Shown: one piece after another, positions 14,601 to 43,159 of the stretch
Layout of the letters: each line of letters starts with the position of its first letter
Numbering within the stretch: position 1 is the first letter of the stretch
Assembly (NCBI GenBank): GCA_035221665.1
Contig: CM069161.1
Location: 15,872,001 to 15,936,000, forward strand
From: Okamejei kenojei
Taxonomy: Eukaryota
Direction: 5' to 3'
Length of the DNA stretch: 64,000 bases
Notes under the pieces: model-generated
Seen by the model: only the letters and a program-made list of their open reading frames with translations
The model's database searches: none
What the model was told of the DNA's origin: nothing
Program-made: the position numbers and the translations under genes

Positions 14601-17600
14601 GAGAGGTCTTGCATTCCAAGGGGCAGAGAAGTACCCCAACAGTCTCAGTCATCTGTCATTCAGGGCTGAAAGAACTGCATATCATCTGGGTCATCCCTGC
14701 TGGGCTGAACTCAGGCCCTTTATAATATAAGATCAGAAGAAAACAACACACTCACATTGGTCTTTCAAATCCTCTGGACTTTCCAAAGTATCTCCCAGCT
14801 AGTGAAATCATTTCTGACAATAGGCAGAGCTGTAGCTCAGGAAATTAGTAGTCAAATTACTCACAGCAGGGTCCTGTAAACGGCAGTAACATGAATTCCA
14901 TTAACTATGTTGGTTGGATTGGCCACTAATACACCATGCTCTGCTAACCTAAATAAAATCATGAGGTGATTTTCATTTAGCTCAATGCAACCTAGACAAG
15001 GTCACGTGTCTGCAGCCTGAAATCTGAAATGTGGCTCAAGCCCTTGATCTTCTGATTCAAGTGAATGAGCAAGTCTGAATTAAGGCAATTGCCAACTAAT
15101 ATCCCAAATTTTACCTAATCCAATTCAACCAGCTTTCTAATCAGAAGGTAAAAGCTTGAAGCCAAGGTTTACATTTTGGTTGGAAACTCCTCCTGCGCTT
15201 GGAACATTTGACAGTTCCATATTAGGCACCTAGCTGAAGACGAGCAGAGCAATCAGCGTCCCACCGCATTTCTGGCCAATGTTCAACACTCGGACCCATC
15301 AAACCAGGACCTGGAGTTGGTGCCAGTCACAGCATGATCTTTTCGTTTCATCTGGAAGAGGGCAGGTACTGAGGAGAATGCAAAGAAAAAATGCCAAAGA
15401 AAACTAAATCTGCATAACGTATTCAGCGCAGAATGTTGGAGAGAAGAAATCTCAGGAGATCGAGTCTCAAGTGGTGTAAGGAGATCAGAATCACATGCTG
15501 ATGTGTTGGCAGAGCAGCGGGCTTGTGGCATATCAACGGGGTCTTTCTCATCTGCAATAAAGGGTAAATACTTGCTAAGAGTTAATCAGTGGTGGAGCTG
15601 GTGAGAGGGAATAAGAAACCAAGTTAACAGCAGAGGGAATGTGTATTCAACATTCAGAGGCATTTTATATCAACACCTGCCAAGAGAAACAAGGACAGAA
15701 TTCCCAAGCAAAGAATGATGCTCAAAGCTGGTATAGGTAACGAGGCAATTCCTCTGTTGATCTTAACCTCGCACTGACGGGCTCTTTTCACAGTGTTGTC
15801 CACTCACATTTTCGTCAAAGTAGTCAATGGTAGGAAATGTGGCAGATATGGAGGACTGTGGTTTTGTGCGTGCTACATTGCAGTTTCATGAGAAAATCGA
15901 TTGGGGAGCATGTTTTACTATGGCTAGCTTGAAGTTTGAGAATTTGCTCTCTGCATGTGACAAACCTTTATGTAGTGATGCCCAAATATTGTCTGTGATT
16001 ACTATGTTTCGCATTATGTGCTCATGTAGAAGTGAGGTTCAACCAAAAATATAAAACCTATTTCACTGAGATTTAAAGGGGACCCATTTAAGCACACTGG
16101 GTTTCGACATTGGGAACTGGCTGCAGGTATATGCTCTATAAGGTTAAATATTTACCAATTGTTGAAGATAAGAAGAACTTATTTGAGATCACAAGCTCAT
16201 TGCTCCATTAACACAGCTGAAATGTGATTCTGATCTCCCGACACCATCACTGCGACCATTCATGCCCAGAACATGACTTGAGAATCTATCTCCCCCATCC
16301 ATTGATGCCCTGACTCTTCTCTCTTCTATTCTACTCCCCTGCTCCTAACTGTACCCACCTCGACCCATGACCCAACGTGATGGTGAATCATTATTTCTTG
16401 TCTGTTGCTCACACCAACGTGGAAAATGGTGTGTAAAGCATTAAATGTTCGAAGCCTATTCTCTTTCTCATGATCCTTGGGCCCCGTACACAGCGGAGCT
16501 TTACAGACCCTTGCACATGACACAGATTGTGCCGAATGCATACTAATACGTTTCACTGCTGAAGCGGGAGCTGTAGATGCTTATTTACCAAAAAGATACA
16601 TTGCTGGAGTGACTCAGCGAGTTAAGAACATCACCTATCCATGTTCTCCTGGGATGCTGCCTGACCTACAGAGTTACTCCAGCACTTTATGTCTTTTGTA
16701 ATATGTTTAATTGCCTGCTTAGCACATCTCTTCAACACTGTAGAACTTCTGAATAACACCTGGGTCTGTCCGATACAATTATATACAACAAACAGAAATG
16801 CTTCAGCATATTTTGCTCATTAGAGGCATAAAAAACTGCAGATGCTGGAATTTGAACAAAAAAAAAACAAAAACCAACGGGGGAGCTCCGTGGGTCAAGC
16901 AGCATTTGTGGAGGTAGAAGAATAGTCAACATTTTGGACTGAGACTCCGCTCAGAGTATTCTGTTCATTGACCCGTGTCTCAGAATTTCCAGATTTCACA
17001 ATGCTTTTTCAACTTTTCCATACTTCTTAAAGGTTACTTAAAAGAGTGACTCTCCCAACATTACTTGTGCAACTGTTCCAGTGCCGAGCTCCTTCAGATT
17101 CTGCACGGTGACAGCCAGCTTTAGAGCAGTGAGCATCTCCTGCAGGGAAAATTTCCACGGGCCAACGGAACATTTTTTAAAATGTTTGTGTTTGGCGATC
17201 AATGCTCTTGTAAATGAAGAATTCTAAATGAGTTTGCTGATTCTGACACACTTCTGACTCTTGACTGAAGAAGGGTCTCGACCTGAAACGTCACCTATTC
17301 CTTTTCTTCAGAGATGCTGCCTGTCCTGCTGAGTTACTCCAGCATTTTGTGTCTATCTTCAGTGCAAACCAGCATCTGCAGTTGCTTCCTACACAATTCT
17401 GAATCTCTCTCTCTCTCTCTCTCACACACACAGACACACCCAGGAATGACTTCTAACTGGGATCCCGACTCCTCTCACTCAGCACAGGCGATGCTGTGGC
17501 CATTGGTAACGTTGCACTGCCGGGTATCAAAATTCCCAAATTGGCTCTCTGCTTTATTTTGTTCCTCTGCGTCTTTCACCAGAGTTCTGCTGGCATTTCA

Positions 17601-18068
17601 TCCACACCATAATGAGCAGTTTTCCACATTTCACTCACAACGCGAGGGAAATTCTCCGGGAAGTTTTCGGCAAAACAGACTCTTGCTAATAGCAGTAAAA
17701 TACAGAAGAATGCTCAGTCTGTTCAAACTTTCCAGTCACTTGCACTCTGTTGATGTGGTATTTTGGCCGTTGTCCTAGCAACAGTATGCCAAACCCCCCC
17801 CTCCTACCATTGATGTTATCTGCGGATGAATCATGAGATTAAAAACAAAAGTCCTGGAGACGCTACCAATTTAGTGTTGAATGCCAAGGCTGTTCCAGGG
17901 AACTGATGTGTCCTCACACATTTCCACCTTTCCTAGCACTAGCAGGGCAAGCCCTGATATTTGCTTGACCATCGCACTGCATCATTACATAATGAGAACG
18001 GTCCTAATCCAAAACATCGACGTCCATTCCCTCCACAGATGCTGCCTGACCTGACCTGAGGGTGGTCC

Positions 18069-18520
18069 ACGGCACGGCGGTAGAGTTGCTGCCTTACAGT
18101 GCCAGAGACCCGGGTTTGATCCTGACTATCGGTGCTGTCTGTACGGAGTTTGTACGTTCTCCCTGTGACCACGTGGGCTTTCTCCGGGAGGTCCGGTTTC
18201 CTCCCACACTCCAAAGACGTACAGGTTTGAAGGGTAATCGGCTTTGGTAAGTTGTAAAAATTGTCTTTGGTGTGTGTAGGTTAGTATACATAGACAATAG
18301 GTGCAGGAGTAGGCCAATCGGCCCTTCGAGCTAGCAACGCCATTCAATATGATCATGGCTGATCATCCACAATCAAAACCCCGTTCCGGCTTTTTCCCCA
18401 TAACCCTTGATTCTGTTAGCCATAAGAGCTAAATCTAATTGTTGATATGGTGATCAATGGTCGGTGGGGACTCAGTGGGCCGAAGGGCCTGTTTCCGCGC
18501 TGTATCTCTAAAGTCTAAAG
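18069..18520 (+). mobile_element. V-SINE interrupted by an antisense CR1 3' end (~18291-18436), itself inserted into a Penelope-derived arm (~17995-18570)
   Basis: SINE head and V-domain resume after the CR1 fragment. The arm sequence GCTGCCTGACCTG...CTGAGTT is split around the SINE. Confidence 0.8.
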
Positions 18521-19825
18521 ACCTGCTGAGTTCCACCAGCACTCCAGTTTCTGCAGTTCTTTGTGTGTCTCCATCGCAACATGGGATCCAGCTGTGCTCA
18601 AATCCCTCCACGACTTTCACCCTCTCTTCTTCTGTAACATTTCCCGTTGTACAATTCCCCAGGATTTTCACTGTCCTCCAGCCCTGTGTGTGTCCGATCT
18701 CTTTGCCCAATTAGTGTTGGGAGTACCTTGGATTGATCAGGACCTATGGTTTGGAGTTCCCTCTTTAAACCTAGCTGCCTCTAAGGTTCTTTAGCAACTT
18801 GTCAGTTTCTTTGTTGAACTAAATTAAGGCGCATGTTGCAATCAAAAGCGCTTGAACAAGGGGTTGGGAAGAACAATGGGCCTCTATCCATCTCAACGTT
18901 CTTGCAAGAAATGACTGAGAACCCAAGTCTTTGAACAAGCCACTTATTTGAATATCTCTTTATGTAACTTGTTATTAGTTTAGCCTGTTCATACCCATGT
19001 TGTGCACCTTGAGACACCTTTTATTTTTAATGGTTCAGTGTTAATGCACGTTGCTGTTGCCTCGATAGAGGATCAGGCGATCGCAACTCTTTTAATCCTT
19101 CCTTATCCGGAGGCAGAGATTTATTGTCCCTGGGAAGACATCTTGCAGATGAGATAAGCTCAGGGTGCGTCTCAGTACCTGGCCATCGCTCAGTGATATA
19201 ATCACCAGGCTGCACATAAACATGAAGAGGGGCTGGAGCACTTGGCAACATTGTGAATGGCTTCATGAAATGTCCTGTTGTTCAGTCAGAACATGTAACG
19301 TTAGAAGATAATATCTGGGGGATATCTCAGCACGTTGCTGTGCACTGGTTCTGGATGAGTCAATATTTTGCACCATTTGATTGTATGAATAGAGCCTTTG
19401 GAATCCTTACTGAGTACTTTCATCTCTAAACTCTGCAGTATTCAGAATTAGGTCTCCAAAATAAATCTTGTTTTTTTCTGTGAGGTCTTGAGGAAGGACA
19501 ATGATAGAAATAAAACTCTTTGTATTTATAATTTCAATATCAAATTCTTGCAAATGTTCTCACAGTGATAGTCCATTGAAGTTGTCTGACTGCCTTCATA
19601 ATCCTCAATGGTGTTTCATTGTCATGTGTGCACTGTACAGTGAGATTCTTTTAGCATAGATCACACATGCATGAGCCACCATAGTTTGGCGCCATTTACC
19701 AAAAATTCAAAGTCCGGTCCTTGCGCTCGATGTACTGGAGCAGCTCCCGAACCAGATAAGCCCCAGGCCATCCTCCTTGACCTCGACCGGCTCGGCCTGC
19801 AAACCGATATCCCTCTACTCACCCA

Positions 19826-20205
19826 ACAGGGGCGACCTCATTGAAACTTACAGAATAATGCAAGGCATTGATAGAGTGAATGTGGAAAGGATGTTTCCAC
19901 TGGTGGGAGAGTCTAGGACCAGAGGTCATAGCCTCAGAATTAAAGGGCACTCTTTTAGAAAGGAGGTGAGGAGGAACTTCTTTAGGCAGAGGGTAGTTGA
20001 TCTGTGGAACTCATTGTCAGAGGACTGTGGAGGCCGAGTCAGTGGATATTTTTAAGGCAGGGATGGATAAATTTTTCATTAGAACAGGTGTCAAGGGTTA
20101 TGGGGAGAAGGAAGGAAAATGGGATTAGGGAGCAGAAATCAGCGAAGTAGTCTCGATGGGCTGACTGGCCTAATTCTACTCCTATAACTTGTGAACTTGT
20201 GACTG
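19826..20205 (+). mobile_element. CR1 LINE 3' fragment
   Basis: RGDLIETYRIMQGIDRV...SRTRGHSLRIKG...NFFRQRVVDLWNSL; short tandem tail. Confidence 0.88.
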
Positions 20206-20843
20206 TCTTTGCATCCTGGGAGCTCCTCTGCAGCCGACCTCGAAGGCACTGGAGGCAATCCCCCAGTCCCTGTTCTACCGGCCCATTACTCAAGTCCATT
20301 GTCACCAGCAGCTCCCTTCTCCTCAGCTCTCCGGTCTTCAGGGCTGAGCTTATCCACTAGGATAAGGAACAACTTAATCCCATGTGTGACACTTTGCAAA
20401 GAAGGCCACACAGTTTTTGCTGCATCCATCCACACCAATACTGTTCAACTCATCCTCCGTAACAAATGGGGGAATTAAAATTCTCCCCTCGAAATTAAAC
20501 TTGCTGTTTCCATGGACACACCAGATGGAAAAACTGAAACTTGAACCTTTTGACCATATAGGGCAGATCTTTGTAGGACTGAGTACTTGTTGATAATAAG
20601 CACAGCAATATATAGCCTGATTCAGTGCCCTTGCCAACATTCCTGATTTTAACGAGTTGTTTGCATTAATTGATGCAGCATTCTGTGGGGGAGGGGGAAT
20701 CCCTGATATTGAAGCAACGGTATAAAATCAGCTAATTACTCCAGAAGTCACAAAACATTAGTAGAATGGTGTTTATTCCACAGACTAAATTAAAGATAAC
20801 GAAGTTGCCATTTTGCACTTATACCTTTTGCATTCTTCATTTT

Positions 20844-21137
20844 TAGTTTAGTTTCGTTTCGAGATACATCGCTGAAATAGGCCCTTCAGCCCACCGAGTC
20901 CGCACCAACCTGCGATCCCAACACATTAACACTATTCTACACACACTAGGGACAATTTCCACTTTTACCAAAGCCTATTAACCTACAAACCTGTACATCT
21001 TTTAATGCAGGAGGAAACCAGAGCTCCCAGGGTAAACCCACGCAGGTCATGGGGAGAACGTGCAAACTCTGTACGGACAGCGCCCATAGTCAGGGTCGAA
21101 CCTGGGCCTCTGGTGCTGTTGTTTACCGCTGCACCAT
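20844..21137 (-). mobile_element. V-SINE (HE1-like)
   Basis: Reverse complement of 8516-8831, with a (CTAAA)-type tail. Confidence 0.85.
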
Positions 21138-21765
21138 GACCTCTCAGCTTGGTGGGAATGCCCCGCCCAATAAGATAGCTGCAACTTGAGTAAAAGAACA
21201 TCAGATCCACTTGAAGTCTGTGTCACTGACCGCAGACCACAGGAATATTCGACGTGCATCCACCACAGAGCACATATCTGTCTGTAGTTACACCGTTATC
21301 TCCAAGGTTTTTGTTTGCATTGGATTAATAGCTGGTGGTCTTTACTATGTTTCCTCCAACAGGTGGTCTGACAACAGCACTGGGGCCCATCAAACCCTGG
21401 CAGTGAATCGTGGAGATGAGGAATGCAAAGTCCAAGTCCTTTATGGACATTTTCTTTCTCCGAAATGCCGGTGTTTATAGAGCAGAGCCTCTCAAGACCC
21501 CAAACCCACCCACTGAGATGAATCATGAGTGAAAGATGAGCAGTACTAGGGCGGGGCTCGGATTCCCACAAGAGGGAGCAAAAATAGAAATGTTAGAAAT
21601 ATTTCCTCGGTCACTTTGAGTCAAAGCTGATTTTAAAGAGACAGAATTTTGAGGCCAGAGTACGACTATAACTCACAGCCGCTGCTTGGCGATGACTGTC
21701 TTAAAGCGCATAGTACTATGTGCTCAGGAATAATTGGTTGGTCCTTGTGAGGAGTAAGTCAGCGT

Positions 21766-22071
21766 GGGTGGCACAGCGGGGGAGTTGCTGCCCGACAGCT
21801 CAGTAACTGCCTGACAGCGCTTGCAGTCCGAGACCCGGGTTCGATCCTGACTACAGGTGCTCTCTGGACGGTTTTTACGTTCTCCCCGTGACTGTGTGGG
21901 TTTTCTTCGGTTTCTTCCCACATTCCAAAGACGTACATGTTTGTAGGTTAATTAGCTTGGGATATGTGTAAATTGCTCCTAGTGTGTGTAGGATAGCAGG
22001 ACTCACTGGACGGTGCGGACTGGATGGGTCGAAGGGCCTGTTACCGCGCTGTATCTCTAAATTAAACTAAA
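21766..22071 (+). mobile_element. V-SINE (HE1-like)
   Basis: B box GGTTCGATCC, V-domain and tail GCGCTGTATCTCTAAA. Confidence 0.85.
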
Positions 22072-23226
22072 GGTACGGGACTCCCTTAATCTTCGGATTT
22101 CCATTGCACTTTCACATTTCCACACAGCACTGTTTTCTTTCAAGTGTCTGGTCTTCACCCCTGCTGGGGCAACCAAAAAGTGTTTGTTTCATTTGGAATA
22201 CCACACAGTAGACCCACAGGCCATGAGAGAAATATGCAGGCCCAAACATAGTCCTCAAATATAATGCAGTTATGTCTTTGGATGTTGTCGGCAGCCACAA
22301 GCCCAGTCAAACCCATTGACTTTTTCTTCTTATCAATGTGTCTCAGTTTGCTATCCTCTGACATTTCTTGCCCAAGTGTACACACTTGATCACACACCTC
22401 CAACTTGGATTGTGTTGTGTTAATCTACCACCACGTGAAATATGTCAAGGAAATGAAATTCTTCTTTGAAAGAAAAACACTGGGGTTTACACCTCCCTTC
22501 ATATTAATAACTTGGTTGGAAAAACAAAATCACATTTTCAGAAATGCCAAGGACTGGAGGGAAATGGGCAATCCGGGGTGGAAGGAGTTGCCCGGAGCCC
22601 ATCTAAACCTACCTCCATCAATTAACTTCGAGCTGTATCCAGGGAGTGGATACTGAGCAGTTATCCTGGCCTGAGTTCGATGACCACACTGTTGCAGGTT
22701 TACAAGGTTGTTTTCACGCACATCATTTAGCTGTAAATATCCTCCACTCACTGTATTGTTTTCTGGAGAAATTGCCTCGGTCTTATTTGGAGAAGTTGCT
22801 TCCATTTCTCTTTTCCCAATCCGAAATTCGATTCTGCTTTTAACTACATTGACTTTGATGTACAACTACAAGTTCTCTAAGTCACATGTCCTCTCCCACC
22901 TCAAATACATTGATGTGGTGTGGTCAACATATATATACAGTATATATATAGTTCATGAAAAATATGCGCTGAAGGACGGGGCTTCACCCTCACTAGAGGC
23001 TCAGTGGTCTGTAGGAATATACTCTTATGTGCTTCAGTTTCATGCAATGTCATATTCTGGGTATCAGGCCATTACTAATACAGGGAATAATAAAAAGTAA
23101 ACCTCTTTTCCCAGGTTGGCTTCAGTGAGAAATTCATATTTTTTTGGATACATTCAGAGATCTTAACATTATCGGTGCTTTCTACATCTACCACACACAT
23201 TTACAAAGCATCTGCACAGAGTAAGA

Positions 23227-23660
23227 ACTATAAGGAGAGGTTGGACAATCTTGGATTGTTTTCCCTGCAACTTCAGAGGTTGAGGGGGAGACCTGAGAGA
23301 AGTAAATACAATTACACAAGGCATGGATAGGATCGACAGTCAGAATCTTTTTTTTCCCAGGGTGGAAATGTCAAAGACTGGAGTGCATAGCATCATGATC
23401 AGAGGGGGGAAAGTTTAAAGGAGATGTATAAGGCAAGTGTCTTTACACAGAGAGTGGTGTGTGTGTGTTTGGAACGCGTTGCCAGGAGTGGTGGTGAAAG
23501 CAGATACGACAGCGGCATTTAAGAGGATTTTAGATATGCAGGGAATAGAGGGATATGGATCACGTGCAGGCAGAGGAGATTAATTCATCTTGGCATCATG
23601 TTCAACATGGGCATTGTGGGATGCAAGGCCTGCTCGTATGCGATACTGTTCTACGGTCCA
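23227..23660 (+). mobile_element. Degraded CR1 3' fragment
   Basis: Y-ERL--LGLFSL--RLRGDL-EV...FTQRVV--WNALP-VVV motifs with frameshifts. Confidence 0.8.
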
Positions 23661-24917
23661 ATAAAACACTGCAGGCTATTATAGAACTACAGCCTACTTT
23701 TACCATTCCCAGAATTCTATTTTTGTGGACGTAGTTTTAATTAAATGATCCAAAGGTTCAGAACATGAAGCAGAATTTGGCAAGTGGCTGATTTATCGTT
23801 TTAAAGTTGCATTTGGCTAATGTTTGTTTCAGGTACGTTTCTTTGATAAATTAATTGATCAGTGCACTAAACTGAAACTCGAAATTGTATTTGAACTTGA
23901 GGGGGAGCCGGAGAGGGGGAGCACCATCAGGAAGGAATGTTCCAAAACTGCCCGGTCCTTGCTGTATATCATGGTGCAATGGGTTGGCCTGGACACATGG
24001 CCAGCATCTGACACTTGGGGGAGATGTCTGGAGCAGCTGTTGGAGCAAGAGCTTCAGCAACTCCATTCATCAGATGACATTCCCATCTGACTAACGTTGG
24101 CTTTGAAATCACGATCCCACACAGTCACTCAATCTGCCAGGCTTAGCTCCATCATTACTGATGGCTGACACTCAGCCTCTGTGATGTGTTCTTTTTCTCT
24201 CTGCACGCAAGCAGCCAAGCGGGTCAAGGGAGGCTCAGCTGATGTGAGGGGCAGGATTGCTGCTCGCAAACCTCCCTTAACTATGGGGCCAAGTCCCCCG
24301 CTCAAGTTAAGTGGTTCAGGAAGGAGGACAACTCCAGTGGAAGGAACAATGAAAGTGTTATGGTTGTGGACGGGGAGGAGTTGGGGGGTGGGTGGAAGAG
24401 CATCTTTCCCGGTCATGCCGTGGGTGTAGGAAAAAGCCCTTGGATCAGGAAGTCCAGAGATTGCCTGTGAGAAGTCAATTCAATCCTTGTCCTCTTGGGC
24501 CAAGAAAACTTTCCAATATTTGTGAAAAGAAAAATCAACTCTCCTGGGCATTTTACTATTTACAAGTTGCCTGGCAATTCTTCCCACCAAAGTCTCAGTT
24601 AAAAATAACCAATGGGCCCTAACGATATCACTGGTGCCTGACTGACATTTACATCCTTAGTTGCCTAGCGTGAGGATCCATTGCATCTGTAAGTTAAACT
24701 GATCAGTTGCCAAAGGTGGCCAGGAATCAAATGTGTAAGTACAGTGAAACGGCCAAGAGTTCACTGGGTTAAGGGTTGTTCCCTTGTCTCTGAAAAGATT
24801 TGTCATTCCAATCAAAAACGCTAGTTGCAATAAACACGTCAAAAAGATTTTCATGAGATATATAGTTCACGACCCTGGTGGCTACAGGAATCAATCTGTC
24901 CTCCCATCTCCTAAGCT

Positions 24918-24964
24918 GGAATTGAGTCTGAAGAAGGGTCTCGACCCGAAACGTCACCCATTCC
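24918..24964 (+). ncRNA. Predicted minimal type-I hammerhead ribozyme motif
   Basis: ggaauugagu-CUGAAGA-A-GGGU(CUCG)ACCC-GAA-ACGU-C-acccauucc: conserved core, stem II, palindromic stem III and imperfect stem I. Confidence 0.65.
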
Positions 24965-27900
24965 TTCGCTCCAGAGATGCTGCTTGTCTCGCTGAGTTAC
25001 TCCAGCATTTTGCGCCTGTCTCCCTTCCCTTGAACTTGGGGTTGTCTATGCTCCAAGACAATCCATGGCAATCCGAGGATCGAAGACTAACATTCATAGC
25101 CTCCTGCAAGCAATTCAGGAGAAAAGTCTTAAAACGTTTTCATCTTTTTTTATTGCTTCAATTAATTAATTAAAAAATAATGATGGTGAGGAAAAGGGTG
25201 GTTGGACCAACTCAGAAATAATCCAATTGGTAAATATATTTAGTTCCCCTACCGATAAAAAAAATTGCCCCTGATTGTCTGGGCTAAAAGCCCAGTACAG
25301 AAACAACTGTGAACCAAACTCTACTTCCGAAATTTGGGTCAGTTGAAGTAAATGGATTCAATGCAGATTCTCAAGACCTAACTGAGTCCACTGACATAGC
25401 TGCAACTGAATGTTGGAAATCAGATCAAATAAGGACTGTGGTTACTTCTCCAAAAGAGTAGTCCTTTCCCCACAGCCGTGGTCACTGCTAATGATACTGG
25501 CTTTTCTTCTCCAGTTTATCGAATTAAATGATTTCACCTTCTTCATCTGCCAAGGTGGTCTTTGGAGACATCTCCAGATCATCACGCCAGAACTCCAGAC
25601 AATTTGTTCAGTAACTTAAACGTTTATTTCTATAAAGATTGAAAATAGAAAGAAGACTGAAGGATGAAAGTAGTTTGCAGATTAGAGCCTTTGAAGGAAA
25701 TATGATGAACTCCACACGGAATTTTTAAAACCTGAGGATATGTCCCACTTGGAAATGAAGCATGGAGAACAAGAGAAATTTGGATAAACAATTACTTTGG
25801 TAGAGGATAAAAAAATGTTGTGACTGAGAAGAAGCGGCGACAACTATTGCAAGGATCATTGATTGTTTGACGTGCTATTTATCTAACAACAAGGAACGGC
25901 ACATGCTGGAATCTTGAGCAAGGCACACAATGCTGGAGGAACTCAGCAGGTCAAGCAGCATCTGTTGAAGGAATGTGCAGACAGCGTTTTGGATTGGGAT
26001 CCTTCTTTAAACTGACTCGTTGAGATCCTCCAGCACTTTGTGTTTTGCTTGTTAGTTTTATACACCGGAGAGCGCCAGATATATATGTTGCAAACGAGAT
26101 AAATAACATCCGAGGTGAAATACTGAAAATAGGCCTATGATATCAAAGTGGGTGGAAGGGAGATTGCTGTTTGATGGTCCCAACATGAAAATAGTATTCA
26201 GTTACTGCTGGTAGGACATCTTGCCTCAGATTAAATAAGCAGCAGTAACACAATAGCATGAGGCCGCATGATCACACCAACATTTTGTCTGGAGTAAGAA
26301 TAGACCAACCTCCATCCCAGAGCACATTAAAAGTAAAAACTTCACTGCATTGGATCCATGTTTAATAGTTTAAAAATAAAACTGCAGCTGAGCTCCACAG
26401 CTGTGAAATCCTTTGACCAAACGCAGTGACGTTGACTTTAACAGTACAGTTGGGATATCTGGTTTTGGTTTTAATATTCTTGTAAACCCATCCTAAACAA
26501 ATCCCTGAAAAATGTCCCTTTAAGAGCGGATCTCGGCTGCGTTTTTTTGGCAATGCCTTAAAACAAACAGTCTCACTCACAGCATGGAAAAAATTACTGT
26601 TCTTGCATCCCCTGGGCCCCTTTGATAGCCTGATGGAAATAGAACTTACAAAGGACGTATAGTTTGTTTAAGCAGAGGTTCAGTACTGGAAACAGTGAAG
26701 AGACTTGGCACTGCACAGCGGTTCTGGAACGGTTTGTATTTGAGGCAGCTGCTGGCAGCGGAATTCACAAGGAAAAAATTATACACCTAACCCTTCAACA
26801 AAATATTCAATTTATGGCTTACTCTGTTTAATACAGTTTCTTCAGCTTACGTCTGCTCTGAATGCAATGTGTCATTAGCTGGCTGACAAACCATTATCTG
26901 TTTAACATCCTTCACATCTCATGAAGTCAGTCTCCCGCTTGGATATGACACAACAAGGCCCATCCATTAGCTGCTGTTGTGGGTGAATTGGGGAATGAGT
27001 GCTGAGAGCTTAGAAGACGAGAGAAAAATTATTTGCTTTCCTATAGCATCTTTCTTGTCCCTTTTAGGGAATTCCCGACGCTCCTCCCAGCTCGTTACTG
27101 ACTACTGAAGTGTGGTTGAGCTGTGGGAAACTGACTGGTGCACAGTGAGCCCCCATGGCCGTTTCATGATAATGATTGGATAAACTGCTCCAGTGAGTGG
27201 ATGATAAATGTCAGCCACTACCCTGGAGATACCTGCCTGCTCTCCAGTGAGGTACTGGCAGAAGTTGCTGCAGTTTGTGTTTCTGGGTACCTTGACCTGG
27301 TTGGTCTGTTCCACGACAGCCTGTGCTTTGAGCTCAGCAAACAGTCCACCATCATCATCATCGTTGAAAACATCAACGGGCGCAGCGGCAGTGATCGCAA
27401 CTTTGCAAACAGTCCACCCTAAGTACCAACTTTTGGGTAAAGCTGCGTTATCGATAAACGATTGTTCAAGAAGAAACTGCAGATGCTGGAAAATCGAAGG
27501 TAGACAAAAGTGCTGGAGAAACTCAACGGGTGCAGCAGCATCTAAGGAGCGAAGGAAATAGGCACCGTTTCGGGCCGAAACCCTTCTTCAGCCTTATCAA
27601 TAAACGATTTGGTTTTTAAGTGTCTGATTAGATCGTATATTTTAATGATTTCTTTTGATGTACTCTCAGCCCCACGGCATTGTTTGGTTCTTGTTCATAG
27701 GTTTTTGGAGCAGAATTAGGCCATTTGGCCCATCAAGTCTACTCCGCCATTCCATCATGGCTAATCTATCTTTCCCTCTCAACCGCTTTCTCCTGCCTTC
27801 TCCCCGAAACCCCTGACACCCTGATTCTTAGGAAGGTGAGTGTTACCTTCTCCCAAAATCAGAGGCAGAGGTATTGCTAGTTATTGATTATAATGCATGC

Positions 27901-29685
27901 ATTAAAATCAATAATACATACAAACTTGCATTTCCTTGCTTTTTTAATTATGTTAGTGCTCAAGCATTGATGGTTGGTCAATCAAGAGGTGACCAATGTT
28001 ACTCGTGCTTTCTTTAGCTAAAGCTACATAGTATGTCTTAAAGGTGTGGTTTGTCCGGAGAAGGTACCAGAAATTAATTTGACCTGGTAAACAGAGAAAT
28101 GTGGATCAATATGGGGAAGAGTGAGCTCCATAGTTTATGAATGATGTGTTAGAAGTTGAGGAGAAGGTAAAAAGTGAATGAGATAGAGTCATAGAGAGAG
28201 TCATGGAATTATACAGGGTGGAAAAGTCCAACGCCCACATCGACCAACATGCCCATCTCCACTTGTCTCACCGATGAGATCAGATGTTCAGTATTGGCAG
28301 ATAACCAGAGCATCTTGTCAGATGGTGGTGGGAAGAAGAGACAATCCTGGAGATTAATGGCACGAGGGACATTCCAAGGATCAGGAATCAGTCTTGCAAA
28401 CAGTTTGATGACCTGACACACAATGGTGGCTGCATCCTCGAATACTATTTCTTCCAACTGTCACCAGCCTCAGCCTGCATTTCAACTCCTCGATCACTCA
28501 GGATTTATACTTACTATACATGTGCCAACTATTGTACCCAAATACGGCAAAGATAATTTATATGGCAAACCTGGTCACCAAAATGTCCTTCAGCGGTCGG
28601 TCTATCCTAAGAACCTTTGAATGCTTCTGTAACATGACACGACTATAAAAAGTAGCAAACACTTGTAAAATCTGTAGTTGAAGCCAGGCAAAACAAATCA
28701 TCCTAATGGGTATAAACCTTTATCATTCCCCCAACTTTAATTGAACACATTTCTCAGGAAGTACTAGAGAGCTCTCAAAGCTTTTTCTCTCCTTTGCTTT
28801 CCCTGTAAAGTCTATACCCCTCACCTGTCTTTACCAATCTGTAGCTGGACAATGCCTTTTAGACTATTATGTTGTGTGAAAATTAGTGTAGACTCATTAA
28901 GTCAGCTTCGACATTACTTCCCATGGACTCGGGGATAATCTTGACTTTGATTTCCACTGATATTCACTTCAATTAATATTGTTAAAATTGGGAGGAGGAG
29001 GATATATAATGGCCCAGAGATTCGACACCAGACTCATTATAAATGTTAAAATTTTCCTCAGTTTCAGCTCATCCTAAAGTCTTCTAGATATTGCAAAATT
29101 GAGTAGAATTTAGGAAATGTGCTTTGTAAATTACAATGTTCCCCATTTTCCTACCTTTGGTGGAAATATATTGAAATTGATTGTATTTGTCAGTCCATTT
29201 GGATCAATGTGTATTTCCAAAACTGAAGCCAGTAAGTTTGCCACACCATGGGACTTTATCCATGGCTGGCCAAAAAGTAGGTGAAAAAAACAAACTGCTG
29301 CTGAAACTCTGCAGTTAGGCAGCATCTCTGAAGGGAATATGCAGTTGACGGTTCGGGTGAGGACCCTTGATCAGTCTGAAGGGTCCCGACCTGAGATGGC
29401 GCCTATCCATTTCTTCACACATGCTGCCCGACCTGCTGAGTTCCTGCAGCACTTTGCTTTTGGGTCCAGAACTGCAGCATCTGCAGTTCCTTACTTCTCC
29501 ATCGAAGTGAAAATTCTGTGCTGCCATTTGTGTTGATTACCTGGTCTGTGGGGGCAGAAATGAGCAATTGTGTTCCCCCAACATGGAATCTGTGGTTGGG
29601 GAGTGGATACAAGCTGCAGAAAGAGGCCATTTGACCAGCCCGTCCTTAATGGGGTTTATATTCAACTTCAATACAAACCTCATTG

Positions 29686-29980
29686 GGCGGCACAGGTAGA
29701 GTTGCTGCCTTAGAGCGCTGGAGGTGCTCCTGACTAAGTCGATCCTGACTGAGGGCGGTGTCTGTATGGAGTTTGTACGTTCTCCCCGTGACCACGTGGG
29801 TTTTCTCCAGGTGCTCTGGATTTTCTTCCACACTCCAAAAACGTGCAGGTTTGCAGGCTAATTGACTTCAGTAAATTGTAAATTATCCCTGGTGCTAGCG
29901 TATGGGTTGATCACTGATTGGCACAGACTCGGTGGGCTGAAGGGCCTGTTTCCACGCTGTATCTCTAAAGTCTAAAGTCT
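29686..29980 (+). mobile_element. V-SINE (HE1-like)
   Basis: Same head, V-domain and tail as 8516-8831. Confidence 0.85.
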
Positions 29981-31035
29981 TGAACCTCCTCCTGTCTTAC
30001 AATGTAACCTTGCTGCCATCAATCACCCATCAGCCTACCCCCTTAAATCTATCCACAGTATGACAGTCTTGGTAAGGCCTTATTCTGCATCTTTATTTCC
30101 TGTTAAGTGTGTCTAAAATCTATGAAATAAATTTCAGTGACAGCAACATCATCTCAACTGTTTTTATTGTTTTGCCCAGAAACCCATCCTCATCTCCATG
30201 AACTGAGTGTACAAGCACGTGGCAGCTGCATGATGAGCTGTTTCCACACTCCTGTCCCAATGAGGTCTGCGTAGCAAATGGCATTCAGTGCACAGATGCT
30301 GCTTTATCGTGGATTTAGCACAAGCAAAGGAGGACTTTCCATGTGACGTAATTGTGGTAACAGTTTGGAGCGTGAAGAAAGATTTTTTTTTTTGTAAACC
30401 CTCATTCCATTTCCCAACTGGAATAATGGCACCCTCATCTATACACACTTAGATTAAAACCTGCCCGAATATTGCAAATTAGCTATTTTCTTAAAATAGG
30501 CCTGGAAGTAATTGGATCTCAGCAACACAAAGTGCTGGAGTAACTCAGTGAGTCAGGCAGCATCTCTGGAAGACATGGATGGGCGAAGCTTTGAGTTGGG
30601 ACCTTTCTTCAGCTGCCTACGGTCACCCATCCATGTCCTTCGATACTGCCGAGCGGCTGAGTTATTCCAGCACTTTGTGTTCTGTACAAGATTGCAGCAT
30701 CTGCAGTTCTTTGTGTCTACTTCTGAGGTTCCAATATGTGGACTGTAAGCCGCAACAAGATTCACAAAGGTAACATTAGCTTCTTACGGTGTGAACTATT
30801 ATCACTGTGGCTGCACAGAAATGTTTCAAGGGAAATAAAAACATGGAATTAATGCCCTACCTATGCGGCTGTGTTGGGGACAATGAGATTCGTACAAGAT
30901 CAGGCACTCTCTTTCAAATGCCTATCCAATTCCTTTTGGAAAGGCCTAAATGATTTTATCTCGATCACTTTGATAGGCACTGAGTTCCAGATCACAACCC
31001 AAACTTTAAAACTATTTTTTCCCAATTCTTGCTCG

Positions 31036-31318
31036 GGTACTTTCCCTGCAACCGCAGGAGATGCAACACCCGTTCCTACCCCTCTCCTTCACATCCATCC
31101 AGGGAGTCCAGCAACTCTTCCAGGTGAGACAGAGATTCATATCCCACATCCATCTCCTTCAACTACCTTTTAGTAGTCGGGCCTTATAGTGCCCCCATCT
31201 CTCCCCCCCCCCCTCCCCTCCCGACCCCCTCTTCCCCAATACAATTTCTTCGACCCAAATCATTGCCTACCCATGTCTTCCAGATCTGACCTGCTCAGTT
31301 ACTCCAGCAGTTTGTGTC
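31036..31318 (+). mobile_element. Penelope-like element 3' relic: Cys-rich pre-GIY-YIG linker followed by terminal repeat arm
   Basis: Frameshifted GTFPCNRRRCNT-SY...TSIQGVQQLFQVRQRF, followed at ~31248-31318 by the arm GACCC-AAA...CTGACCTGCTCAGTTACTCCAGCA. Confidence 0.7.
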
Positions 31319-33141
31319 ATCACACTGTGGATGGCTTCATTGTAATCATATCTTTTCTTTTCGCTGACGAGATTGCATGCAACCATAAAGCTTTTCACTG
31401 TACCTCGGTACAGGTAATAACAAACTACACTCTAACTCTAAAACTCTAAACCTATCTGCCTGGTTCTTGAAGCACCTCTTAATGGCAACAACATCTCTAT
31501 TTATTAAGTGTTAAAGAAGGAACTGCAGATGCGGGAAAATCGAGGGTACACAAAAAGATGGAGAAACACAGCGGGTGCAGCAGCATCTAAGGAGTGAAGG
31601 AGATAGGCAACGTTTCAGGCCAAAACCCTTCTTCAGTAGGATTTTAGGGTACTGAGACTAGAAGGCAGAGAGAGGAGGGTGTGAGAGAGAAACATCTCTA
31701 TTTATCTTGTCACAAATGTTCACCCCTCTATCAACTATCCAATAAGTGCCTGGAATAAATCTTATCCAAAGCATATTTTATCACAATCAAATATTGAAAC
31801 ACAATCTATTTGTGATTATGTTATCTTTGTGGTCAGGGTGTTTTTGCCACCTTGTGTAAGTCTAAAGGTGGGATAGGCTTGAAGCATCGAGATTGATCAC
31901 GTTTAAAGACTCTGATGCTTGATGTGCTGAAGGCTGCAGCAATGTGGATCGTTAATATACAAAGAGGCTGGACCTTTTTGTCCGGTTCAAAGCTCAGTTC
32001 CTCCAGGGTTTCTCCAGGGTATCTGGCCTCTTGAGAATTTGAAATGACTATTTACAAAGAGTTACAGAATCACAGCGCCGCTTCTTTAAAGAAATGGAAC
32101 AGTCACAAGATCGTCAGGAGGCAATGAATAATCGAGATCAATCTCAACCAAATAAAATCCTTAACATAATAATAAAGCAAATTTTGATCCATCTTTGGTC
32201 GTCCATCTGCAAGGAATCCACATTTTCCCCCGATTATTGGCTTAAAATGAACGTCATTTCATTTAGCACAATACAAGGCTTTCATTACCAGTGCAGAAAA
32301 ACATCTTGTGAATAGATGAAATAATTTCATCAATTTGGTCTGCTTCTGTACGGTCACATGTGAGGGCACTGGACAGATTTATTGCAAATATGCTTAACAT
32401 TATTTGTTATCAGAGCTGAGTTATCCTGTGCAACAATTATTAATTCTCCAAAGCAGGTTAATGTCTGCCTCCTGCAGAGATGCCAATATGTTTTTCCTTC
32501 ACTGGCTGCTCCTACTTATGGAAGTTAATGCACAGGCGGGGAACTGTATAATTTGCCTGATAGCTTACTGGAATGATTCAAGGCTATTTTTGTGCCATCA
32601 TATCGTGAGTGCAGGCGTGGGGGATGCCTACAGTAAGTGGCAGAGAATAGAGGCAACAGTTAGAGTTTACTGTCATGCATGCAGTATCTGTTCTGAGAGC
32701 ATAAAACTCCAGGAAAGATCTCAAATGATTTATTCCGGGAAGAAGAGCTTTGCATGTCACAGTTTGTACTTCAATTACTTTAAAATAAAATTAAAGGTTA
32801 CCATGCATCTGCCAGGATGCTATAATTAATTTTCATCTTGGCAGAAGTGTGATGTTCACAGATAATACGGTGCAATGTAAAGGGAGTCGTAAAGGCAATG
32901 GCTAATAAGAACAGTAGGACTTTAGGGTACTGAGACTAGAAGGCAGAGAGAGGAGGGTGTGAGAGAGATCACAAGCCAGTCATGTAATGTGTAATAAAAA
33001 TAAAACTGCTGGGGGGGGGGGGGGGGGGGACTCGGCAGTTCGAGCAGCACCTATGTGGGGAAAGGTATTGTCGATGTTTTTGGTCGAGACCCTGCATCAG
33101 GCTTATTGCCACATGTGATGCTGCTGTGGATCTGAACTGTT

Positions 33142-33283
33142 GTGGGTGGAAGATTGCAACCTTCACGTGGTCCGCCCTGTTTCGACTAATGTGATCAACT
33201 CAACGTGCACAAGCAGAAGATCAAATAGAACAAGTTGTCCTGCAGCATTAGGCTGTGCACGCCACACGTAAGAAGAAGAAGAT
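33142..33283 (+). mobile_element. HDV-ribozyme-headed short retroposon, copy 2 (ribozyme 33143-33196)
   Basis: TSD TCTGAACTGTT (33131-33141 / 33284-33294) and (AAG)n tail. The P2' substitutions remain G-U compatible. G1 is replaced by T. Confidence 0.88.
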
Positions 33284-36200
33284 TCTGAACTGTTTAAACC
33301 AGTGATGCCCCAGATTTCATCCTATAGCCAAGAAACAAGGCCAGAATACATCCATGTTTGGATGCTAAATGGCCCTAAAATCTCCAAAAGAGCAGATGTC
33401 TCAATTATGGAGCACATTTGTACACTGGCAAATACAAAACGCATGAGTGGCTGTGCCCACGTCTTAAATTGGCCTTGAGCCCTTTATGTATGCAATGTCT
33501 GTGTTGTCTTGCATTTTTAATTAGCTTATCGACACTCACTGTCTAAATAAAACTAAAACCAATCTGTAACATGTCAAAGCGTCAGATGAAAACAAAATGA
33601 TTCACAGCAAGAGAGCCCCTCATCCTGCAGATTAACCCACAGAACAGGGTTAAGGAGGCAGTGACTTAGAAGTTACTTTTTGGAAAGATCCCCAGGAAAT
33701 CATTCAATCCCACAAACAGAAAGACATCTGCAAAAACTTAATATAAAATGTATAATCATACAGCGCAGCCTCTCTGAGCAAGGAGGAAAGGATGCCCAAT
33801 TTCAGGAGGTGCAGCAAATCCGGCTTGTTGTAGACCAGGTTTACAGTGTGCATGCAATGATCCCAGAGAGACTGGGGTTGGGGTGAGGCTCCAAATTCTA
33901 GTTTCATGTCCTTTTGATAATTTATTGATTGACCCTCCAGTTCTCTCCCATATTTTGCTGAAGGCACTGACTCACACAGGGGGGAAGCCATTCCTCAGAT
34001 GCAAGGACAGACAGACTATTCTCCAGAGGGGCATCACAACAAAACCTATTTTTGCCAAATATTTTCCAGGGGAGGTAACGAGACAGGTGTTGTTCTAGAC
34101 TTTGCGTAGGGACGTGGAGATCAGTCTCTACTGCACTATTACCACCAAGGTTATGGACACCGCCAGCCAAGCCGAGTTGGCAGGGCTCAGTGTCAGAGAA
34201 GGAAATGACTTTGGTCATGAAATTATGCCACATGATACAAACAACCCCATTCACCGTTGCAAGGAGGCTCAACATCAAGTCCTGTCGCTCCTAGAACTCT
34301 TAATCTGATGATTCTCAGCTGGAGGTAGTGGGCGCTCAGGTAAGTCATCTGAAGCGTGCAAGGCTGAGCCAGGAGCCGACATCCCACTTCACTGACGTGC
34401 AACTGGAAATAGTGACTGCAGAAGAGGTCTCCATGGAAAGAACAGAAGCTCCTCAATCGCGCCCAACCAACCACATGCACACATGCACACACGCTCGCAC
34501 GCACCAGAAAATTAGGGCCTCTCCCAGTTTGATCCATTGTTGCATCCATCAGTCTTCTCAATGTCGGACTCCCCACCGAGGTTTGCCCCATCACGGGTGC
34601 CTGAGACAGGCTGCTTTCTTCCACCAAACCCTGTTCATCAGCTCTATATCATAATCGCCATGTCAGATGTGCATAGACCCGGCGATTCCTGTCACCAGTG
34701 TCTGTATAAGGTGACGTGCACAGGAGCGTCACGCATTGAAGCAAATGGTTCAACACAGCTTTAGGTTCTAAGCACACATCACCATGATTTTATCCTTCAA
34801 CAGCAAACCACGGACAAACTGTAGCTGATGCAAATGATGAAATTCCAGATTAGGCCTAAATGCAGGAGTACTTTCAAACATTGTAGCTGGGCTGCAGACA
34901 AGGCCGAATTGTTGAACAGTAACATTTACCATCGGTGGTCATTTGCAAACGGCAGTGAGCAGTCATATTCAACTCCTGTTATAAAACTACGTAAATAAAC
35001 AAAACCCATTTCATACTTTGTTGTAAACATCTATCACTCCAGTAGATCATGACATTGGGGTTTTGCCTCAGCAGCTATCAGAGGTGAAATCCAGAGACAT
35101 TGGCCTCGTGAATCAAATTATCTGGCCCAGTGTAACAGAGGGCTGGTGTTACAAAGGGCAACGTCCCTTCAATGTCATACCAAGTGTCAACTAATTGCGT
35201 GCTGTTTGGAGTGGGACAGAGCTGGATAATTGTGATTGTGTAGTGAGTGCCAGCTACTGTGATGAGCCCTGACCTGGACGTGTAAAACGGCAAAATTTTT
35301 CTCAGGCAAAGTTTAAGATCTCCTGAACAAACTTTACTTTGCTTTCCACGACACCACGCGTTTCAACAGTTAAACTCAGCAGCCGTAAAGAACTGTCTCT
35401 GCCCAAGTTCAAAACATTGTCCTGATTAGCAGAAGTGGAAAGACACATTCCTTAAAAGAACAATGTCAGGAACAGGCAAGTGTTCTGCTGGATAATTCAG
35501 TTTTGTTTTCCCAGAGAGCAATTAGTTGTTTAGTTTTTAATCAGCCTGTTTTTTCCACGGCTTGTCAAAGGAGCTGGGCCACAGTGTTGTGGTGACCAGC
35601 AGAAAGCAGTCTGAGAATAGAAAGCACACAGCACGCAAGGGCCTGTGAGTGACTGTCAGTGAGTCTCCTGTCGCTCATTGTTTTACACAGGACAATAGAT
35701 ATTGGGTGTAGACACGAAATGCTGGAGTAAGTCAACGGGTCAGGCAGCATCTCTGGAGAGAAGGAATATTGGGTGCGATACAAAGCACTTCCTCTTCAGA
35801 ACATGTGGTGCCAAGTGCCCTAATATTTTGCAGTTACATTTGCACGTTTATTTTGAAAGCTGCTTTCCCCCCCACTAATACTTGGGTCTTTCATCGCAGA
35901 TATAAACGAGATGCAAATTCCTGTTGATATTAATTTTCACATGAGCAGCAAATACCATCTGTCAGACCCCAATGAATCACTTGAGCCTGGGCCAGGCTAC
36001 AAATAGACTGCTCTTGGATGGGATCTGCAGCTGTGAGTGAGTCCATGCACAGCACTGGCCCTGGGATTTATTAGTCATGCACATTTCCACTGGGGGGGGG
36101 GGGGGGGGAGCGCTTGGTGAATGGTAGATCACCAATTGAGAACACAAGAGCTGAACTCTGGCTTTGCTTATAGAACCAGAGAAAACATTTGTTGGAAATG

Positions 36201-39200
36201 GACTCCATTAATGGAATCCTGCATCGTGTCCAAGAAAATACAAGAACAAGATTCTCTGATTTTCCCAGGCATTACCCCAACCCCCCCCCCAAAATGTCAT
36301 GTGCAGTTTCAGTGTCTGCTGGAATGGTTACTTCATGTCTGTGAAAGGGGAGAAGTTATTTTCTGTGCTATGACTGACATTTAAAAAAACACTTTTTGAG
36401 GTTGTTTGCAGCACTGATCGAGACTGGATATCTTTGAAAATGCTAGAAGATTTTGAGTAGAATGTATGGGTGGGGAAAAATATCAAGATAATGGGAATTA
36501 CACGTCAGTGGTCGATGCAGGGAGGTGTGTTTGGGTTTGTGAACATTGGGAACATGGCTGGCTCCAGAATGATTAAAATAGATGCTTTTTTTTGGAAAGA
36601 TTGATCGAGGTCAGGTAAGAATATTATACTTACAACCTCATCAATTTCCCTATGTCTGGACATTACAGAGGAATTACTTAGCTGAGAATCCATTTAATGT
36701 TGGGTATGATGGTAACTACAGTAAAATATGATTTAATGAATGCAAACATTCTGACTTTGTGCCAGGAAATCGGTTGGTGTAAACCTGACCCATGAGAAAG
36801 AGCTCACAACCATGTTCTCAGCCAACTACAGATTCCTTAATGAGCTTGCTGCAAGTTATGAAACTTGAAGCCAATGCTGATGATGCAGCTCCTATGCATG
36901 GCACGAAGGCTTTACTCCAGGGTGAGTGCGTTGTGATCACGATTAGCAGGAAACTTAGCATGGAACTGAGAGTGCTGAAACATGAGGCACAGAAGGATTC
37001 TCTTACTTGAGAAACAGCAAGAAATGGGGAATGTTGCTGGATGGGTTGCTCCGAGAATCTTGAGGAACATGGTGCTAGAAGAATGGCCACATGTTGGATC
37101 GATTTAACAGACGAACTATCCCTTTCACTTCTTTACTGCCTCTATGGTAATCTCTCCTTTTAAACTTTGTGAGATAGTGCTTCTGATTCTTTGATTGTGC
37201 CAGCCCAGCGACTGAAGGGTAATGTCGTTCCAGTAATCCTGGGTTTACAAAGAGGTCCATCAGTTATCAGTTACTGAAACAAAGAGAAACTGGGCAGATG
37301 CTGCACTATTAGAGGTTCCATTCTGCAGATGACACACGCCACATCAGTCTCTCAGGTCGAAGTGATAACTGAGAGCAGAGATAATCCATGCGTCAATATA
37401 CATTGTTTCAACAGGTTATCTTTCTTTCCATTTGTTTCTTCATGAGGCATCGTTGACTAAGCAAGCATTAATTGCCCATTCTTATCTCCCCCAGGTCACT
37501 GCAGAGGGTAGTTAAGAGTTAGTCACTATGACTACAGGAGGTTTCCCTTGGATGCTCTGGTTTCCTCCCACATTCCAAAGACATGCAAGATCATAGGTTA
37601 ATTCATTAATTACTCAATTAACTAACTCTCCCACAGCATAGGTGGATGGTAGGAAGATCAGGATGGAATTGGTGGGTAATGTGAGGGATTATTATAGGGA
37701 AGTAAGCGGGAGATGAGATTGGTGGGATTGCTCTAAACCTGGTGGCTTCATGCATTGTAAGGACACGGGGTTTGTATTAAAACATGGCTGTTAGTCACAA
37801 AGGCCTCAGTCAGGGAACATTAGGCTTTGTGCTACGTTGTTACTGAGTTTTAGATGTCAGACTGTAGCTGAAACCTGGTAAATGTTTAATAATTTGTCAT
37901 GACCTATTATGTTTGGACAGGAATCTGTGTACAAGCTAGTGTGTGAGTATAATACATCGGAATTTTAAATGTGGATAAATGCTATGTTTGGATCATGCAG
38001 ACTTTTATCTGTACAAGTCTGTACCAGTCTGCAGGCCCCACATGCATGGCAATTTGACAAATATCTTTATCTGCGCTACGAAAGAAGCTCCGTGAGGCCA
38101 AGAGAGTGCTTGGAGGGGTGTGTTTGAATAGGTTGGGTTCCTGAAATATTCAGCTCAATAAACGCAGACAAAAAGAGCCAAACCGACAACAGTGGAACAG
38201 TGGAAATCGGAATTTGAAAGGATGCAATAGGTCCATCAACATCTGTAAAGAACGCAGGAAACAGCCTGCCCCAGCAACCAGTAAGATCAGAGTTATTGAT
38301 CTCCTATCTTAGCTACTTTGGCCTGAATGCTCATGTAATAAGTGATCCCAGTCGCATCCAAATTAACTGTGGGGATCAGGAGCTGAAGATGTGCGGGGGA
38401 GCGGATACATATTGCATCTTTTCAGTGGAAGCGGTATCTACAAATTTGGCTTCCTGTTTCCATCTTAAAACAAACTATTTCTTCAACTAATTCTGCAAGC
38501 AGAGAAAATCTAACCGTTTCTTTCTGACATTCAAAGGTCTCAACATCACTGAGTCTCTTGTCAACAACGCCCCAGGATTACAATTCACTCGAACTATAAC
38601 TGGACCAAAAACACAAAATAAGTGGCTGGAAGAGCAAGTGGAGGTGGAGAGCAGATCCCAATGATTAGGCGGCGGCTGGTGGCACTGATTCACAGGCAGT
38701 CTGAACTGGAGGGTTAGAGATGGCAGAAGTCACTCACTGTTGCTCTGAGACCCCTCTGCAGAGAGTCAGAGAATCAGCAGCCTCTCTGGAGAAAAGGAAT
38801 AGGTGACATTTCAGGTGGAGACTCTTCTCAACCTGAAACATCACCTATTCCTCTTTTCCAGAGATGCTGCCTGACCTGCTGAGTTACTCCAGCTTTTTGT
38901 GTCTATCTTCAGTTTAAACCAGATCTGCTATCCCTTCCTACACAGAGAGTCAGCGATGTTGTAACAGGGATCCTCCTGGGGGATCAGGTTATGGAATAAG
39001 ATTTAAGGGCTGAAAATAACCGTCTAGTCTTTGCCCTTAGTAAGGGCCCAAGCATACACAGTAGACTTTGGAAAGAATAAAGTGGAAATATATCTTATAA
39101 ATATTATTAACAAATGGTTCTAAAAAATTAATAGTTGTTTCTACCCGGTTTGAACAAATGCATGCCTTTGGTGTGTGTGAATTTGAAACCCATGATGTAC

Positions 39201-43135: not shown

Positions 43136-43159
43136 AAATACTGCAATGGCAGACAGACC

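Follow-up and report, generated by a model that had tools for sequence, protein, structure and literature searches.

The short repeat that recurs throughout a 64,000-nucleotide stretch of genomic DNA (hereafter the window), which we call the arm, is the pseudo-LTR (pLTR) end of a group of EN+ Penelope-like retrotransposons (PLEs) of the Neptune type, with units of about 3.65 kb. The best explanation for its many copies, and one that we consider likely, combines this pLTR end with two RT starts, run-off solo arms, twin-primed pairs and a decayed hammerhead. Both the hammerhead motif and its PLE home are already known, and as such the finding is ordinary; the scale and regularity of the arms make them a very large record of PLE insertion ends.

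Arms and hammerhead motifs in a cavin intron

Searching the window by BLAST with two arm consensuses, we found 30 arms covering 2,743 bases, in agreement with the roughly 25 copies or arms in 64 kb of a first-pass annotation; a further arm at 42402, beyond these 30, was seen in a separate repeat comparison. The annotation had also described the arm as the commonest short repeat, and it forms the largest repeat family of the window (24 segments, vs 20 for the next). All 30 arms lie inside the 49-kb intron of a two-exon cavin gene, 16 sense and 14 antisense, bearing out the proposal that they seed introns on both strands, with no strand bias. The gene and the arms discussed below are:

2947..52282, minus strand: 49-kb intron of cavin (PTRF/SDPR), with GT donor and AG acceptor
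~52741-52283 (exon 1) and 2946-2224 (exon 2), minus strand: cavin coding exons (Pfam PF15237, E 1.5e-46 and 1e-35)
24925..25021, plus strand: main example arm, comprising AGT, a minimal hammerhead and the downstream part; short (tail-less) 3' end; 93.6% to the A consensus
24928..24955, plus strand: minimal type-I hammerhead core of that arm (C3-A9, extra A, stem II, G12-A15.1, palindromic ACGT, C17)
41679..41915, both strands: head-to-head pair of a short arm (minus, 41776-41679) and a long tailed arm (plus, 41785-41915)
9942..10135, both strands: head-to-head pair of two short arms, joined at a CAG-W-CTG palindrome
12584..12671, minus strand: B-type short arm with intact core, beginning at AGT directly after a 14-bp TSD; sense to the cavin pre-mRNA
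12684..12817, minus strand: A-type long arm with damaged core, just upstream of the insertion at 12671
5529..5661, minus strand: A-type long arm with damaged core; 8-bp TSD
7633..7724, plus strand: A-type short arm, found by BLAST
17265..17395, plus strand: A-type long arm with intact core, without stem I
27463..27593, minus strand: B-type long arm with U16.1 changed; 16-bp TSD with one mismatch
31509..31690, minus strand: B-type long arm with intact core, without stem I; some 54 nt of additional sequence at its 5' end, within a 15-bp TSD
38777..38944, both strands: head-to-head pair with its junction inside stem II; 11-bp TSD
49701..49849, both strands: B-type head-to-head pair with its junction downstream of the hammerhead, core absent; 15-bp TSD
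40130..40247, plus strand: A-type long arm with an internal deletion
51768..51863, minus strand: A-type short arm; 10-bp TSD
3707..3836, 25891-26044, 29290-29495 and 30525-30712, both strands: older, diverged head-to-head pairs of BLAST arms

Five TSD pairs had been named, and all are real: 12563/12672 (14 bp), 27448/27594 (10 bp exact, 16 bp with one mismatch), 31490/31691 (15 bp), 38759/38943 (11 bp) and 49683/49842 (15 bp); random flank pairs attain 10 bp in 9 of 2000 cases. The main example arm has no clear TSD, its best exact flank match being 5 bp, and the pair at 41679..41915, whose plus-strand arm has an intact core and a 3-bp stem I, is flanked by a 7-bp repeat. The only direct (same-strand) pair in the window, 12584-12817, is an insertion with its own TSD.

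Eight 10-kb stretches at fixed positions elsewhere in the genome contained 36 arms, and extrapolation from sampled DNA gives about 1.3 million arms, or some 4% of the 2.76-Gb genome. The density of copies with a perfect core is much higher near the start of the large contig C1, most strikingly for copies with CAGT in front; the first 27 Mb hold 50 and the next 50 are spread over 150 Mb. An apparent subfamily with the common 5' flank GAATTGAG was set aside as a product of selection by the search query. Mid-arm sequence also occurs in short tandem arrays with units of about 54 nt or longer, without the hammerhead core:

L165:2004-2224, L166:470-795, L060:2633-3070 and L064:658-1093: mid-arm tandem arrays

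A second repeat cluster of the window, with about 20 segments (4056-4496, 18071-18520, 39765-40051, 50963-51386, 59416-59844 and others), probably represents several SINE and LINE-end families chained together; the window contains no tRNA genes.

As annotated, letters 24928-24955 can be read directly as a complete minimal type-I hammerhead with an extra A. The sequence CTGAAGA (24928-24934) is followed by the extra A after A9 (24935), a 4-bp stem II of GGGT/ACCC with a CTCG loop (24936-24947), GAAA (24948-24951), CG, T at 24954 and C17 at 24955; the predicted cut falls after 24955, and stem I is 2 bp long. The arm thus contains the CUGANGA / GAAA / UH core of the PLE minimal hammerhead (min-HHR), together with the extra nucleotide between 9 and 10.1, G10.1-C11.1 and the palindromic 15.2-16.2, and lacks the helix I of 4-5 bp. 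With a hammerhead descriptor we found five intact motifs in the window, at 17265, 24928 and 41785 on the plus strand and at 31636 and 12668 on the minus strand, vs a mean of 0.04 and a maximum of 1 in 50 first-order shuffles of the window. Genome-wide, a degenerate 28-letter core had 62,260 matches and its reversed control none.

The two stem II subfamilies with different loops that had been recognized are both present, as A-type and B-type arms. The claim that stem I is closed in some copies holds for the 3 bp at 41785, but longer closed stems are not native: among 46 intact motifs stem I measures 2 bp in 30, 3 bp in 5 and 0-1 bp in 11, with none of at least 4 bp. The closed stem reported at about 5626-5669 on the minus strand belongs to the copy at 5659, whose core is damaged and whose stem is partly borrowed from its 8-bp TSD. 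A comparison with Rfam, suggested earlier, gave no hammerhead match for the window or the main example arm (E up to 1, then 10), as expected because the motif is almost without stems I and III; the Rfam matches in these scans were hairpin look-alikes arising from palindromes and were rejected.

The parent Penelope-like elements

The Penelope origin proposed in the first-pass annotation was confirmed by the presence of the arm at both termini of RT/GIY-YIG elements, so that the arm does stand at PLE termini, in arm-ORF-arm elements. A genome search for GIY-YIG yielded loci with an endonuclease segment ending about 100 nt before an arm; the first hits were mostly from another PLE family, without the arm, and were discarded. 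Among the 30 best loci for the EN query, 26 have the arm pattern no more than 330 nt after the GIY-YIG stop, two have a damaged core and two end before the arm. In full elements, a pyrimidine-rich UTR separates the GIY-YIG stop from the 3' arm. The GIY-YIG domain was recognized by Pfam (E 5.6e-7), and the upstream RT resembles another PLE ORF (tblastn E 1e-72) and contains RT motifs, while the 443-aa fragment tested had no match to Pfam RVT_1. At the other end, 15 of 25 loci have all or part of an arm immediately ahead of the ORF start, and full arm-ORF-arm partial tandems of about 3.65 kb were present in 5 of 12 fetched loci, one of them with a 15-bp TSD.

The linker before GIY-YIG reads C-x4-C-x2-C, which is the mark of Neptune and Nematis and fits the CX2-5CxxC linker reported as common to both (PMC8557442). 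Partial tandem pLTRs, inverted 5' copies, a 30-40-nt tail and a TSD are all present, as in EN+ PLEs. Element copies are 85-92% alike, and all full copies seen are broken, with no intact ORF and a longest open frame of 479 aa among 150 EN hits. Both A-type and B-type arms are attached to several UTR types and to EN, and the elements therefore comprise several related families with a common end.

Full elements have a frame that runs uninterrupted from the hammerhead-core TGA as far as the first ATG (L147:1640-1800 and equivalent loci); some 30 nt beyond the tail, this ATG lies inside a splice-donor-like AAG/GTATG. Within the window, none of the arms adjoins a recognized UTR; at 31035-31141 and 62427-63185 the window has small decayed fragments like PLE linker/EN and RT.

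We also came across a second, young EN+ PLE family, which is attached to telomeric repeats and may matter more than the arm itself. It occupies about 5.0-36.2 kb of contig C43 (L014-L017) and occurs at L018, L023 and L037, with dispersed 3' fragments at L006-L013 and L019-L025. Its 6.35-kb units, 95-99% alike, stand five head-to-tail between (CCCTAA)n tracts in an array that adjoins the telomeric start of the contig, and in many dispersed copies the end is a telomere-like stretch with CCCTAA-like repeats after it. Each unit has a 759-aa RT + GIY-YIG frame (Pfam) and, upstream of it, a second open frame, at most 605 aa long, with no match in Pfam. Its full type-I hammerhead (stem I about 8 bp, stem II 4 bp, stem III 5 bp) gives a weak match to Rfam HH9 (16.2 bits; cut-off 52). 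Published accounts, as far as we consulted them, tie telomere attachment to EN-minus PLEs, and our literature search, which did not extend to Repbase, Dfam or subscription journals, found no telomere-targeting EN+ PLE.

Arm ends, copying and ribozyme activity

The arms end in few places. Their 3' ends form two clusters, at model positions 87-99 and 123-131, about 35 nt apart. In 144 kb of unbiased DNA, 24 of 44 arms end 5' at -5 to +8, 18 break inside the arm and 2 enter the UTR, such that 24 of the 26 arms reaching C3 stop around the TCAGT just before the hammerhead. This 5' wall is a window about 5 nt wide and not a single base: per-base retention is 0.76 at -3 and 0.74 at -4, vs about 0.93 downstream (21 local copies), an end exactly at GT or AGT occurs in only 2 of 17 copies bounded by TSDs, and an exact 35-mer that occurs 6,705 times in the genome is preceded by GT in 4,952 cases, by AGT in 3,767 and by CAGT in 2,773. 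Among the first 15 perfect-core copies of contig C1, 7 run on into UTR or EN, vs 2 of 44 in unbiased DNA; comparison of 7/15 with the 2/26 arms reaching C3 therefore places the run-through share between about 8% and 45%. The element is also present in contigs of four sequencing runs from four organisms, where its loose ends fall at these 5' and 3' positions, although such contigs reveal neither the RNA start nor a cut.

Head-to-head pairs are similarly regular. Our set of 39 contains loci originally selected with other queries and a few pairs called twice; in 27 a long arm is joined to a short one, 3 are short-short, 1 is long-long and 8 are unclassified, so that long+short accounts for 27 of 31 classifiable pairs (p 1.1e-5). 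The fold-back centre CTTCAG-W-CTGAAG has 8,420 matches in the genome; 34 of the first 100, counted by eye, have a non-native central A, for which inversion is the only explanation.

The 5' wall and the long+short pairing would both fit run-off reverse transcription from a transcript start combined with twin priming. According to this scheme, transcripts would begin at an initiator-like site, at the A of the TCAGT just before C3, because this sequence fits YYANWYY, which we take to be the initiator consensus. Within the arm, RT would have two alternative start sites, about 35 nt from each other, giving short and tailed 3' ends; the RT-start mechanism is borrowed from the anole PAc element, and the ends are what we observe here. 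Priming on the 5' arm would reach the run-off RNA end after 100-135 nt and leave a solo arm, and priming on the 3' arm would give longer, 5'-truncated copies. If both target strands were primed, one at each start site, the two cDNAs could be joined head-to-head, often through self-complementary CAG-W-CTG cDNA ends. The hammerhead is a real motif of the element, kept in master lineages and decaying in dispersed copies, and most genomic copies appear to be short products of autonomous-element machinery.

Published work on PLEs provides several of these parts. For PAc, internal priming at two sites bounding a 30-40-nt tail has been described, with both target strands cut and extended; a protein dimer is predicted, and the hammerhead cuts only with the protein and is dispensable for insertion in vitro (PMC11167929). 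An internal promoter has been reported for Penelope (PMC2377424), palindromes at inverted PLE junctions in PMC3846280, and a one-sided tail for PLEs in PMC8557442. If true, the run-off and twin-priming model would jointly explain solo pLTRs, the one-sided tail and the head-to-head palindromes. We regard it as possible, if on balance doubtful, that two steps of PLE transposition not described before are recorded in these approximately one million short insertions: a strong-stop-like run-off cDNA, primed internally on the 5' pLTR of a transcript that would start three bases before the hammerhead, and twin priming in which each target strand takes a different RT start site. In the literature searched we found neither the 5' wall nor the long+short pairing, and no paper tying strong-stop or twin priming to PLEs or pLTRs; Repbase, Dfam, subscription journals and supplements outside the search may cover the family.

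The first-pass annotation had read the arms as a non-autonomous family that moves on its own. TSDs also flank truncated autonomous copies, and both subfamilies are attached to PLE 3' UTRs or EN; since the majority of copies resemble short autonomous-element products, the existence of a distinct non-autonomous family does not follow. A related reading, in which the solo arms are themselves the masters, as a SINE-like non-autonomous family with an internal promoter and RT starts that is moved in trans by the PLE protein, is rather unlikely in our view. It would sit well with the 42 solos and short pairs vs 2 UTR-attached copies among 44 arms (a count in which unknown UTR types could be miscalled as solos), with the internal promoter of Penelope (PMC2377424), with a report that pLTR sequence alone suffices for mobilization in trans (PMC3846280) and with a 2026 preprint deriving retrozymes from pLTRs (10.64898/2026.07.22.740005). 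Against it, A-type and B-type arms both occur on several UTR types and on EN, and palindrome spacers, 5' extras and solo junctions differ from copy to copy among the listed copies, so that the palindromes were not copied as units. Solo-arm masters are compatible with our preferred explanation, under which solos may be re-transcribed and moved in trans.

It is quite improbable that the 5' wall is instead set by splicing, with the UTR resembling a polypyrimidine tract that ends in CAG/T, or by palindrome-driven template switching. In favour of splicing, 14 of the 16 A arms that are joined to a UTR retain CAGT, with UTRs of different types among them, donor-like sites exist at the EN stop and after the tail, and a D. 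virilis intron has been reported to end at helix I (PMC4209133); yet 812 kb of loci contain no copy with either predicted spliced junction, the sole match being a UTR variant, and exon 1 is missing from solos in which the TSD immediately precedes AGT or GT. On these grounds spliced RNA was rejected as the template. Template switching would draw on the palindromes at inverted junctions (PMC3846280), but a palindrome alone leaves many solos unexplained. Cleaved RNA was likewise ruled out as the template: among 233 arms, no 5' end falls at position 29, the predicted cut site, and 3 fall at 30-31, without a peak.

We return to the hammerhead, which the first-pass annotation regarded as potentially self-cleaving, a proposal left weak by the 2-bp stem I, a preferred alternative fold, decay of G12 at CpG rate and the absence of strand bias. 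For the main example arm, the hammerhead fold scores -3.9 kcal/mol vs -13.4 for the MFE structure, a hairpin between the core and the strand that follows it, with energies that ignore tertiary contacts, dimers and protein help; arm monomers do not fold more stably than shuffles (z 0.61 to -0.12). In this arm (24928-24967), as in others, an alternative hairpin can form between the strand that follows the cut site and the 5' part of the core together with stem II. Such a hairpin would keep the ribozyme off until protein refolds it. The copies proposed for a cleavage assay (after 24955 and 41812) are antisense to the host pre-mRNA, as is the arm at 24925..25021 as a whole; only the copies at 12668 and 31636 are both intact and sense to cavin. 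Self-cleavage at 24928-24955 is unlikely because of the 2-bp stem I, the preferred other fold and the antisense orientation, and the arm hammerhead is probably not an active ribozyme in this intron.

Retention is a little higher in the core than downstream of it (A-type 0.946 vs 0.894, B-type 0.973 vs 0.941), which speaks for self-cleavage, but this excess is expected because subfamilies were mixed and alignments were required to begin at C3; core CpGs decay at the same rate as other CpGs, and G12 is kept in only 80-85%. Single min-HHRs are reported to be inactive in vitro and dimers to cut weakly (PMC4209133; Lunse et al. on dimer cleavage, via the review PMC6765202). That the dispersed motifs are functional ribozymes cutting host pre-mRNA, as dimers or with protein help, is highly improbable despite the 62,260 intact cores, the slight core excess and the protein-dependent cleavage by the PAc hammerhead (PMC11167929), given the short stem I, the lack of strand avoidance in the cavin intron with just two intact sense cores, the CpG decay and the missing 5'-end peak at the cut site; dispersed copies almost certainly do not cut host RNA.

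Comparison with known systems

The arm motif is a further case of the minimal hammerheads of PLE pLTRs described in 2014 (PMC4209133), with which it shares the type-I core, the extra base after A9, G10.1-C11.1, the palindromic 15.2-16.2 and the predominance of solo copies, few lying inside full PLEs. Stem I is usually 4-5 bp there vs 2 bp here, a length also found in a D. virilis variant. Core counts, obtained with different descriptors, are about 4,000 in coelacanth and 9,000 in Xenopus vs the 62,260 reported above. That paper, as far as we consulted it, does not name cartilaginous fish, the group to which the host seems to belong judging by the repeat, and our literature search found no paper on the arm family in this group; Repbase, Dfam and subscription journals may hold it.

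Non-LTR retrozymes (Li et al. 2026, 10.64898/2026.07.22.740005) are likewise short and PLE-derived and carry a type-I hammerhead. They form head-to-tail tandem units, whereas the window arms are solo or head-to-head, an arrangement that excludes the arm as a tandem retrozyme.

Neptune-clade EN+ PLEs (Craig et al. 2021, PMC8557442) have the same order of RT, zinc-finger-like linker and GIY-YIG, as well as partial tandems, inverted 5' copies and a tail at one end; our clade assignment is by linker. Neither a 5' wall at the hammerhead nor a count of long+short pairs appears in that description, as far as we consulted it.

PAc (Poseidon) of the green anole (Frangieh et al. 2024, PMC11167929) also has a hammerhead at the pLTR-ORF junction and two RT starts that bound the tail at about the same distance from stem II. 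No PAc reads are reported to begin or end at the cut site, matching the lack of a copy-end peak there in our data. The element described here differs in its CX4CxxC linker of Neptune/Nematis type, in being known from its sequence, and in the position of the first in-frame ATG, about 30 nt after the tail vs at stem II in PAc. With the 5' wall and the long+short rule in hand, how PLEs finish their insertion becomes testable in the in vitro PAc system.
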